DNA of 64,000 bases from Escherichia coli (GTDB lineage Bacteria > Pseudomonadota > Gammaproteobacteria > Enterobacterales > Enterobacteriaceae), in NCBI RefSeq assembly GCF_011045215.1, contig NZ_CP049202.1; one strand, written 5' to 3'. Under the pieces are notes generated by a model that was not told where the DNA came from, made no database searches, and saw only the letters and a program-made list of their open reading frames with translations. Within the stretch, counting starts at the first letter, position 1. Each line of letters begins with the position of its first letter. Position numbers and translations under genes: made by a program. Below are positions 61,646-62,426 of the stretch, piece after piece.

Positions 61646-62098
61646 TTAATTACCCGTAGGGTTTTCTCTCAGTTTTTCTGCCAGTTTTAAAAAAGCATCA
61701 AATTCTTTCTGATCTGCACATATTTTACTGGCTGTAACCGACACGGTTATTCCTGATATGTTATTGGCAGAGTCTTTAACATCATTATTATGGACGGAGA
61801 CATTATCGGGACTGAAAATATAAACCTTTTCTCTGGGATAATCCCTGTCCACATCCTCCCGCCACTGAATCTGTTCTTTATCAAAACGGTGATACATTAT
61901 TGAGGAAAACCGGCACAGCCAGTCGTCAATGCATGACAGCTTATCCAGTAATTGTTGCGAATGACGGACCTCACTGGCAAGCTGCCGGCACTCCATAATG
62001 CACCGTGACACACCACCATTTGCATTCACAAGCGCTTTCATTTCCAGCAGAACACCCATATCAAGTATTCTGGAGCCATATTTTATATTATTACTCAT
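61646..62098 (-). CDS. hypothetical cytoplasmic protein (150 aa), gene B of an AT-rich two-gene insert
   Basis: ATG 62098 with AGGAGG Shine-Dalgarno; start overlaps the stop of the upstream gene (ATGAGTAA); no family recognised. Confidence 0.5.
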   Translation of the reverse strand: MSNNIKYGSRILDMGVLLEMKALVNANGGVSRCIMECRQLASEVRHSQQLLDKLSCIDDWLCRFSSIMYHRFDKEQIQWREDVDRDYPREKVYIFSPDNVSVHNNDVKDSANNISGITVSVTASKICADQKEFDAFLKLAEKLRENPTGN

Positions 62099-62426
62099 TA
62101 CATCCTCCTCTGTTTTTGTTTACACACTTACCTGGCATAAACGCATCAGAGCACAAATATTTAAAAAACACAGCAGCAAAAGCACACACAAATGCAGCTT
62201 TCAGATATAGCCGGACCAGAAACATTTTCCCTGACATATCTGACTGTTGCCATTCATAAATAACCTCACTGAGGACACTATCAGGAACAAAATAAAACAA
62301 TATTGCAGGTGCCATTACCAGATTAAAAGGAAACCATTTTAATGGTTCATTTATCAGCCGGATAAGCACACAACCTGTTCTTTTTAAATTATGTGTGTAT
62401 TTACTTTTTATCATCTCAATTTTCAT
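62091..62426 (-). CDS. hypothetical small membrane protein (about 111 aa), gene A of an AT-rich two-gene insert
   Basis: ATG 62426 with GAGGAA Shine-Dalgarno; two predicted transmembrane helices; Cys-rich C-terminus. Confidence 0.5.
   Translation of the reverse strand: MKIEMIKSKYTHNLKRTGCVLIRLINEPLKWFPFNLVMAPAILFYFVPDSVLSEVIYEWQQSDMSGKMFLVRLYLKAAFVCAFAAVFFKYLCSDAFMPGKCVNKNRGGCNE

Follow-up and report, generated by a model that had tools for sequence, protein, structure and literature searches.

A common, variable slot between traU and trbC of F-like transfer operons holds a predicted membrane hairpin and an ECR-motif protein

Two extra genes lie between traU and trbC

The window analysed here is a 64,000-nucleotide stretch of Escherichia coli DNA that carries an F-type transfer (tra) operon. 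On the minus strand, the traU-trbC junction holds two co-oriented extra genes, ORF-TM followed by ORF150. All genes and sites given for this junction lie on that strand. Upstream, traW (63444-63974) is truncated at the window edge, and traU (62455-63447; NCBIfam NF010297, E 3.7e-221) forms the conserved flank, ending in a TAA stop at 62457-62455. Its protein is 99-100% identical to TraU of F, R100 and p397Kp. From ORFs and translations, ORF-TM (62091-62426) starts with an ATG at 62426 and encodes 111 aa (RefSeq WP_057698277), and ORF150 (61646-62098) encodes 150 aa. A gap of 27 nt separates the end of ORF150 from the start of trbC at 61618 (60980-61618; NCBIfam NF010290; protein start MNWKIF...), the downstream conserved flank. 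Beyond trbC lie a 126-aa ORF and then traN.

The preliminary description of this DNA had placed at 61646-62426 a 111-aa protein with two helices and a 150-aa soluble protein, each behind a Shine-Dalgarno site. ORFs, hydropathy and sequence agree with it exactly. The site of ORF-TM, GAGAGGAA (62432-62439), has its GAGG core 7 nt before the ATG, and that of ORF150, GAGGAGGA (62110-62103), lies within the tail codons of ORF-TM (..NRGGCNE). At the junction of the two genes (62091-62110), the ORF150 ATG (62098-62096) and the ORF-TM TAA (62093-62091) share an 8-nt overlap, ATGAGTAA, which makes translational coupling from ORF-TM to ORF150 plausible. A longer reading of ORF-TM (116 aa, from 62441) was set aside; it has no Shine-Dalgarno site, and RefSeq also gives 111 aa.

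On the coding strand, a consensus scan gave no terminator-like site in or between ORF-TM and ORF150 and just two promoter-like sites, both weak (9-of-12; 62448-62419 and 61980-61951), so the simplest view is that the long tra transcript includes both genes. Across the scanned region there were 6 promoter-like sites, against a chance expectation of 3.5 ± 2.0. Over the junction, E. coli C5 plasmid A (IncFIB/FIC) is 99.5% identical, and both genes are annotated there as 'hypothetical protein'. The segment that varies relative to F begins at the traU stop and extends into the 5' part of trbC. By BLASTP and DNA alignment, the first ~20 codons of trbC (the signal peptide) are wholly different from those of F, whereas mature TrbC is nearly identical. 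The window also contains canonical traS (50550-51059, 169 aa) and traT.

ORF-TM is a predicted inner-membrane hairpin

Hydropathy places two hydrophobic segments in ORF-TM, at about residues 31-47 (TM1) and 68-91 (TM2). Charge distribution gives a basic N-terminal tail with 7 K/R. The loop at 48-67 is 20 residues long, acidic (4 D/E, 1 K) and predicted to be periplasmic, and the C-terminal tail is basic and contains Cys. Because of the N-terminal K/R residues and the acidic loop, ORF-TM is predicted to be a two-helix hairpin of the inner membrane with N-in/C-in topology, both ends facing the cytoplasm.

Alignments of the family show a conserved core consisting of LK-FPF, FYF-P, W59, D63 and RLY. 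We define the family, which has no name, as proteins of 90-115 aa with two hydrophobic helices and the motifs LK-FPF / FYF-P / W..D / RLY, encoded directly after traU. ORF-TM has every one of these features by alignment, hydropathy and position. Pairwise dN/dS for ORF-TM ranges from 0.2 to 0.6.

ORF150 has a helical domain with an invariant E-C-R motif

ORF150 is acidic (pI 5.9), has no hydrophobic segment and is predicted to be a soluble cytoplasmic protein. An N-terminal helical domain of ~90 residues carries the invariant E36-C37-R38. It is followed by a low-confidence middle stretch, an ITVSVT-K-C127 segment and a C-terminal helix. The AlphaFold2 model, a weak one (pLDDT 70.9), is a helical bundle with no strands by DSSP. 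The motif of the N-terminal domain reads NGG..CI[LM]ECR..L.D.L..[IM]D..L, and L54, D58 and Y87 are invariant in addition to E-C-R. Pairwise dN/dS lies between 0.1 and 0.45.

When proteins are clustered at 90% identity, the clusters that hold the exact ORF-TM and ORF150 sequences have 245 and 882 members, respectively, and the conserved motifs of both families persist to about 35% identity. Judged by sequence conservation, both are confirmed as real genes and not chance ORFs, because of these clusters and of dN/dS values below 1.

One remote link leads to Serratia tra operons

The preliminary description could assign no motif to either protein, and neither matches a named family in Pfam, NCBIfam, PHROG or the PDB. 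Searches of Pfam, NCBIfam and PHROG with both proteins and many homologues returned nothing usable, including no match to an NCBIfam or Pfam tra family. Sequence-profile searches of the PDB gave no hit for ORF-TM or ORF150, and fold searches gave none either. No match to a known anti-restriction, anti-CRISPR or anti-SOS family was found for either protein. PADLOC returned nothing for ORF-TM. For ORF150 it returned an E1-E2 match (PDLC00839, E 7e-4; an E2-like domain with a Cys), which we attribute to chance because it is absent in four homologues, one of them 71% identical, and because the model is all-helical, unlike the alpha/beta UBC fold. PADLOC searches with neighbouring cargo of the tra operon yielded nothing beyond weak HNH/PtuB-like matches, for an HNH gene.

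Exhaustive phmmer searches against 1.84 billion representatives returned no protein with more than an automatic name, and nearly all matches were from enterobacteria; a concatenated TM and soluble profile run against 5.8 billion proteins gave the same picture. A 3,022-aa repetitive eukaryotic protein was dismissed as a repeat artefact. By hhalign, the TM profile has no relation to TrbA, ArtA or TraS (probability 0.8% against R100 TraS).

The remote homology check proposed at the outset thus yielded no PDB, fold or named-family match and one link, from the ECR domain to Serratia tra-operon proteins. The N-terminal domain of ORF150 aligns with 125-136-aa proteins of Serratia and Yersinia F-type systems, found on 67 plasmids (hhalign 97.5%, E 5.5e-12; for example QDI35859.1 and WP_223501629.1). 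These are true homologues of the domain, and their genes lie in the traW-traU or traC-trbI intervals of the gene block that also holds ORF150, with translational coupling to the tra gene that follows. Unlike ORF150, they lack the C-terminal half, are as GC-rich as their flanks (55-59%) and have no adjacent TM partner; they are uncharacterised. ORF150 and these homologues form an ECR-domain family with a ~90-aa helical domain, E-C-R, L54, D58 and Y87, and a gene within the traC-trbI-traW-traU-trbC block. The family occupies three different slots within this one block, and we therefore regard it as tied to the transfer machine rather than as random cargo.

Literature searches on the junction, on R100/R1 ORFs and on tra-operon deletions found no paper that names or tests ORF-TM or ORF150. 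A paper on 'novel exclusion' in pKPC_UVA01 was considered; it deals with TrbK of a P-type system and is unrelated to the slot genes.

The traU-trbC junction is a common and variable slot

In F itself, traU is followed by trbC after 8 bp, with neither extra gene. Pilus assembly and transfer as such can thus proceed without the two genes. The earlier view of them as an insertion into a conserved gene order holds in that they are extra relative to F, but the position is a common slot and not a one-off site. The survey of F-like plasmids suggested in the preliminary description found different gene sets in different plasmids. R100 has a 101-aa ORF-TM homologue and no other gene, and pSLT-like Salmonella plasmids have a 102-aa homologue, again on its own. 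In p397Kp-type IncFII plasmids, a 102-aa TM protein (TM102) is joined by a 173-aa ORF150 homologue (about 32-34% identity). The pEQ011-type slot holds a 153-aa mini P-loop protein and ORF150. Other plasmids combine TM and ORF150 with the P-loop gene, with a 122-aa multi-pass membrane protein, or with a traP copy and a 253-aa ORF, and in some TM is the only gene, accompanied by a gap. The junction can also take up unrelated genes, namely IS1 and a traP copy.

By tblastn, about 1,976 plasmids in PLSDB carry the TM family and about 709 the ORF150 family, while 4,369 match the traU/trbC flanks. Close to half of the PLSDB plasmids with a match to the junction thus have the TM family in the slot, although these counts, like the genome counts that follow, come from redundant collections and give orders of magnitude, not frequencies. 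Among 5,426 complete E. coli genomes, 226 carry the ORF150 allele and 22 the full arrangement seen here; 238 of the 239 places are on plasmids. The TM family sits in the traU-trbC slot at every inspected locus, including those of R100, pSLT-like plasmids and metagenomic contigs. Both families were found almost only in F-type tra operons, and all inspected loci fall within the traC-trbC block. The two genes of the window are one allele combination in a common, highly variable, dispensable and position-fixed slot of F-like transfer operons.

No homologue with a known pilus-assembly role came to light; F is without the gene, and there is no tra family match. The slot genes fall outside the core F-type pilus-assembly genes, which occur in practically every functional F-like system, F included, and have a known role in assembly. 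Since they are absent from F, they were never named or mutated in classical work, and the TM slot family has never been studied because this model plasmid lacks its gene.

TM alleles diverge far more than their flanks

The contrast first drawn between AT-rich genes and GC-rich tra neighbours (35% and 41% versus 55-56% GC) is real. ORF-TM has 35.1% GC and ORF150 41.3%, compared with 55.8% for traU and 55.1% for trbC. The foreign origin read from it does not follow. Across lineages every allele is AT-rich, with 28-44% GC for TM and 40-44% for ORF150, and the operon's further small membrane genes are likewise AT-rich (traS 32%, artA 34%, trbA 40%, trbE 41%). AT-richness therefore characterises genes of this class and is not a sign of recent import.

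We compared the window with three other plasmids at the protein level. Against R100, TraU is 100% identical, TM 58% and TrbC 94%, and ORF150 is absent. Against L004, the values are 99% for TraU, 64% for TM, 99% for ORF150 and 96% for TrbC. Against p397Kp, they are 100%, 40%, 34% and 85% in the same order. For TM, dS is 0.3-1.8 with omega below 1, against a dS of 0.06-0.12 for traU when the same plasmid pairs are compared. Judged from this synonymous divergence, the TM alleles long predate the backbones in which they now sit, and they are under purifying selection. Window and L004 DNA are about 100% identical from trbC through ORF150 to 62111, 63-93% identical exactly across the TM ORF and 100% identical again at the TM 5' end. 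Read from the alignment, such sharp breakpoints at the edges of the ORF are the mark of allelic replacement by recombination.

At 70% identity, 114 sampled unique TM proteins form at least 13 groups; the ORF150 proteins form 4. TM is also present in lineages whose traU lies at dS 0.7-0.9 from that of the window. From this we infer that the TM gene is an old resident of the slot that was lost by F.

The two genes are facultative partners

The sole distant relative returned by phmmer is a 259-aa fusion protein. Its N-terminal 97 residues are a TM-family hairpin and its C-terminal 160 an ORF150-family domain. At its locus the order is traU, TM103, the fusion and then the 5' end of a gene at the place of trbC, where the contig stops. 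The fusion CDS is intact and annotated in 3 complete plasmids, and the protein forms 11 clusters in a large protein collection. Its structure model is weak (pLDDT 56). Because the hairpin has a charge-based N-in/C-in topology, the fused ORF150 domain is predicted to lie on the cytoplasmic side. The fusion and this topology together suggest that the ORF-TM hairpin probably tethers ORF150 at the cytoplasmic face of the inner membrane.

In the loci that we compared, only TM alleles that precede ORF150 have the C-terminal extension GKCVNKNRGGCNE, and its codons include the ORF150 Shine-Dalgarno site. TM-only alleles at these loci terminate in ..FMPVNSRK. TM stands without ORF150 in R100 and pSLT-like plasmids and is alone in most plasmids. 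In a six-frame HMM scan of the whole of pEQ011 (85.5 kb), ORF150 was present (E 4.6e-88) and no TM homologue was found (best E 0.11). ORF150 therefore cannot strictly need the TM anchor, and the pair is facultative, not obligate.

Discussion

The slot genes share features with several known groups of plasmid proteins. Like ORF-TM, TraS (NF010304) is a small hydrophobic inner-membrane protein encoded by an AT-rich gene inside the tra operon (32% GC here), is dispensable for transfer and has alleles that diverge deeply between similar plasmids. TraS differs in that it shows no sequence relation (hhalign < 1%), lies after traG and is larger (169 aa here). ORF-TM, with no NCBIfam match, does not belong to the TraS family, and for TraS, unlike for the slot genes, both a partner (TraG) and a phenotype are known. 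The genes trbA, trbE, artA, trbD, trbG and trbJ likewise encode short, mostly membrane-associated proteins that are AT-rich, poorly conserved and placed among pilus genes. In classical F genetics, mutants of the non-essential Trb/ArtA genes have no or mild phenotypes. The slot genes differ from these in having no homology to TrbA or ArtA, and also in that a cytoplasmic partner is optional and a fused form exists. We class them as unnamed members of a known group, the small, dispensable accessory proteins encoded in F-like tra operons.

Two other groups are comparable in what they do. The Eex proteins of SXT/R391 are inner-membrane exclusion proteins of F-type systems whose allele specificity lies in the cytoplasmic portion. 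ORF-TM and ORF150 would follow the same logic of an anchor and a cytoplasmic part. PifC, FipA, Osa and Tir are dispensable plasmid proteins that hit rival transfer machines, at coupling proteins or ATPases, on the cytoplasmic face of the membrane. By analogy, a role of this type is plausible for a membrane-tethered cytoplasmic domain. The genes of these inhibitors, unlike the slot genes, lie outside the pilus-assembly block, and the slot proteins have no detected sequence or fold similarity to anything.

[quoted passage not shown] The ORF-TM hairpin would hold ORF150 at the cytoplasmic face of the inner membrane, and the unit would be produced only alongside the pilus and the T4SS. It may act at the inner-membrane/cytoplasmic side of the T4SS, with TraC, TraD, TraG, TrbI and TraB as candidate partners and the E-C-R motif of ORF150 as a likely functional site. 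Its role would be accessory and allele-specific, for example barring rival plasmids or pilus-dependent phages from the donor T4SS or pilus; alternatively, it may tune the machine in a plasmid-specific way. It would not be a structural part of the pilus. The divergence of TM beside conserved TraU and TrbC, the high TM dS, the sharp breakpoints and the at least 13 allele groups together give the signature of conflict or specificity. Within this operon, the other membrane gene that is both AT-rich and hypervariable is traS (32% GC). The preference for a conflict role over a housekeeping role leans on evolutionary pattern and context, as neither protein has homology to a characterised one. Homogenisation of the flanks by recombination, together with drift of a weakly constrained gene, could also give old alleles, with no balancing selection.

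A bolder form of this reading, which we consider unlikely, is that the slot is an unrecognised allele-specific conflict system of F-like T4SS operons that tells self from non-self at the inner-membrane face. Its players would be the hairpin alone or with a tethered ECR domain, sometimes with the mini P-loop ATPase. It might act as a second layer of exclusion or fertility inhibition, or block the entry of pilus-dependent phages. Such a system would explain why many deeply diverged alleles are retained in near-identical backbones.

The slot could instead encode a mild housekeeping helper of the Trb kind (compare TrbA, TrbE and ArtA) that makes pilus assembly, retraction or tolerance of envelope stress slightly better, with allelic diversity due to weak constraint and recombination and not to conflict. 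This alternative, the main one, is possible but rather doubtful. It accords with the small size, AT-richness and dispensability that the slot genes share with trbA, artA and trbE, with their location inside the traC-trbI-traW-traU-trbC pilus-assembly block, which the Serratia homologues share, and with the conserved periplasmic loop and TM-boundary motifs, which suggest a conserved binding partner. Among F-like plasmids, trbA, trbG and artA are very poorly conserved ('Five Shades of F', PMC5102898). Yet synonymous divergence 10-20x that of the flanks and sharp mosaic breakpoints exceed what weak constraint alone would give, the persistence of 13 or more deeply split allele groups in backbones that are almost identical suggests that alleles are maintained, and hhalign shows no relation to TrbA, ArtA or TraS. 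The exclusion function named in the preliminary description has lost ground without dropping out, and we hold it to be quite improbable. Here a second determinant of the entry-exclusion type, made in plasmid-bearing cells and seated in the inner membrane, would recognise, allele by allele, a component that comes from a donor with a related plasmid and block redundant transfer, as in TraS-TraG or SXT/R391 Eex. Like traS, the TM gene is AT-rich and hypervariable, encodes a small inner-membrane protein and lies within a conserved tra operon; the cytoplasmic tail or domain could hold the specificity, and some F-type systems (IncHI1 R27) do have two Eex proteins. However, canonical traS and traT are already in the window and ORF-TM has no sequence relation to TraS, TM alleles exchange independently of their neighbours, with no co-varying partner among the few loci compared, and F excludes normally without the TM gene.

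The remaining alternatives fit the distribution of the genes poorly. A toxin/immunity or toxin-antitoxin pair, also raised in the preliminary description, would have the membrane protein as a pore-former or abortive-infection effector and ORF150 as its antidote or sensor. The two small, plausibly coupled genes, one for a two-helix membrane protein, would suit this, and fusions of membrane effectors and sensors are common in defence systems. The obligate linkage expected of such a pair is, however, not seen. TM lacks ORF150 in R100 and pSLT-like plasmids, the TM family reaches 1,976 plasmids in order-of-magnitude counts against 709 for ORF150, and pEQ011 has ORF150 with no TM homologue; nor is there a reproducible PADLOC match. 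We consider such a pair very unlikely. Much the same holds for the anti-defence function on plasmid entry that had been suggested. Here ORF150 would be made in the donor, possibly be translocated by the T4SS, and aid establishment in new hosts by acting on entry. Donor expression ahead of transfer would suit a translocated protein, and F-type systems are reported to translocate plasmid proteins (PMC8406263). Anti-defence genes, however, are reported to cluster in the leading region (PMC11541004), whereas the slot lies in the last-transferred region. Leading-region anti-defence genes are oriT-adjacent and of known family, and the slot genes are neither. ORF150 is probably tethered, and in some plasmids fused, to an anchor in the donor membrane and matches no known anti-defence family, which makes action on entry highly improbable. 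Recent foreign cargo, unrelated to conjugation and passive in the operon, might be read from a GC content below that of the flanks and from the unrelated IS1 and traP copy in the same junction. This we regard as extremely improbable, given that both families are found almost only in F-type tra operons, that 238 of 239 E. coli places are on plasmids and that AT-richness is family-wide.

In E. coli, Salmonella and Klebsiella, resistance and virulence genes travel mainly on F-like plasmids. The transfer operon of these plasmids has been deemed fully catalogued, and the slot families show that it is not quite so. The evolutionary pattern of the TM family resembles that of specificity and exclusion genes. 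If the slot genes control access of rival plasmids or phages to the pilus and T4SS, the consequences would reach plasmid typing, competition among plasmids and phage-based strategies against plasmids. Should they be mild helpers only, two unnamed families still gain an architecture, a topology and a motif, and the junction stands as a recombination hotspot. The linking fusion, the ECR domain in common with Serratia operons and the contrast of old alleles with a young backbone appear to be undescribed so far. In databases, members of both families are labelled 'hypothetical protein' in thousands of records or carry the auto-assigned label 'Conjugative transfer protein'.

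Variable content between traU and trbC

ORF-TM, the 111-residue membrane hairpin protein, and the soluble ORF150 are not the only occupants of the traU–trbC interval. The commonest arrangement with ORF150 has a 153-residue mini P-loop protein directly 3′ of traU, as in pEQ011 (L005 2989-3450) and likewise in L002 and L003. The gene stands either in place of the membrane gene or before it. Its product carries the Walker A sequence GEEDTGKST and weakly matches Pfam AAA_14 (E 9e-4), the DS8 antiphage model and mad8. In pRHB01-C08_3 the junction holds a second traP copy and a 253-residue ORF (L006 2865-4241), and IS1 has inserted there in some plasmids; plasmid hits H15 and H49 are further examples of such junctions. 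This confirms that insertions are tolerated at this junction.

The membrane gene itself varies. The allele of a pSLT-like Salmonella plasmid (L014 2495-2803) has a single hydrophobic peak only and a divergent C-terminal third (..SLESSSLLFMYRGKRCTGK), and its ORF shares 16 nt with the beginning of trbC. The copy may be in decay or may have been remodelled.

Codons 1-20 of trbC (window 61559-61618, minus strand) were compared with those of F (L012 6379-6438). The signal peptide is MNWKIFALFALTAGMHITVH in the window plasmid and R100 and MKLSMKSLAALLMMLNGAVM in F. The two are unrelated, whereas mature TrbC is nearly identical between the window plasmid or R100 and F. Therefore, the start of trbC is part of the variable segment, and slot content and signal peptide seem to move together.

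Some family members (proteins P0002 and P0077) are labelled by NCBI as Staphylococcus aureus and Acinetobacter baumannii. These most likely represent contaminated or mislabelled assemblies, because the distribution is otherwise strictly enterobacterial.

Gene content at other junctions of the tra operon

Homologues of the ORF150 N-terminal domain, which bears the E-C-R motif, lie in Serratia F-type plasmids (L019 3923-4300; L025 1501-1878; L022-L024 at about 2500-2911). They occupy the traW–traU or traC–trbI junction, and every one of them runs into the 5′ end of the tra gene that follows. L019 and L025 additionally have a DsbA-family gene inserted between trbI and traW.

Downstream of trbC, a 126-residue ORF (window 60603-60983, minus strand) overlaps the trbC stop and precedes traN. 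No match to it was found in Pfam, NCBIfam, PHROG or PADLOC; the protein cluster that holds its product has 675 members. Elsewhere, its position is taken by an HNH endonuclease, or by a 123-residue homologue together with an HNH endonuclease (the pSLT-like plasmid, p397Kp and locus L009). From this gene content, the trbC–traN interval looks like a second variable slot. Between the 126-residue ORF and traN, a 73-residue ORF lies on the opposite strand (window 60393-60614, plus strand), overlapping the 3′ end of the former by 12 nt. Its product has a zinc-ribbon-like CxxC...CxxC N-terminus followed by a hydrophobic helix, and its sole match is a weak one to PqiA (NCBIfam, E 0.01). The ORF could have arisen by chance or could be, like artA, an antisense gene.

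The traR–traC junction, just beyond the window, is by its gene content another accessory slot, which F lacks. In L001, the near-identical plasmid, it holds four further hypothetical genes of 72-158 residues (L001 13714-15247), none with a PADLOC match. R100 likewise has hypothetical genes there.

Annotated defence genes of pEQ011 (L020/L021, 44-52 kb) comprise AVAST type 4 (avs4), an AbiGi-family antitoxin and a TrlF-family ATPase. They are located elsewhere on the plasmid, and thus the defence cargo of such plasmids lies mostly outside the tra operon.
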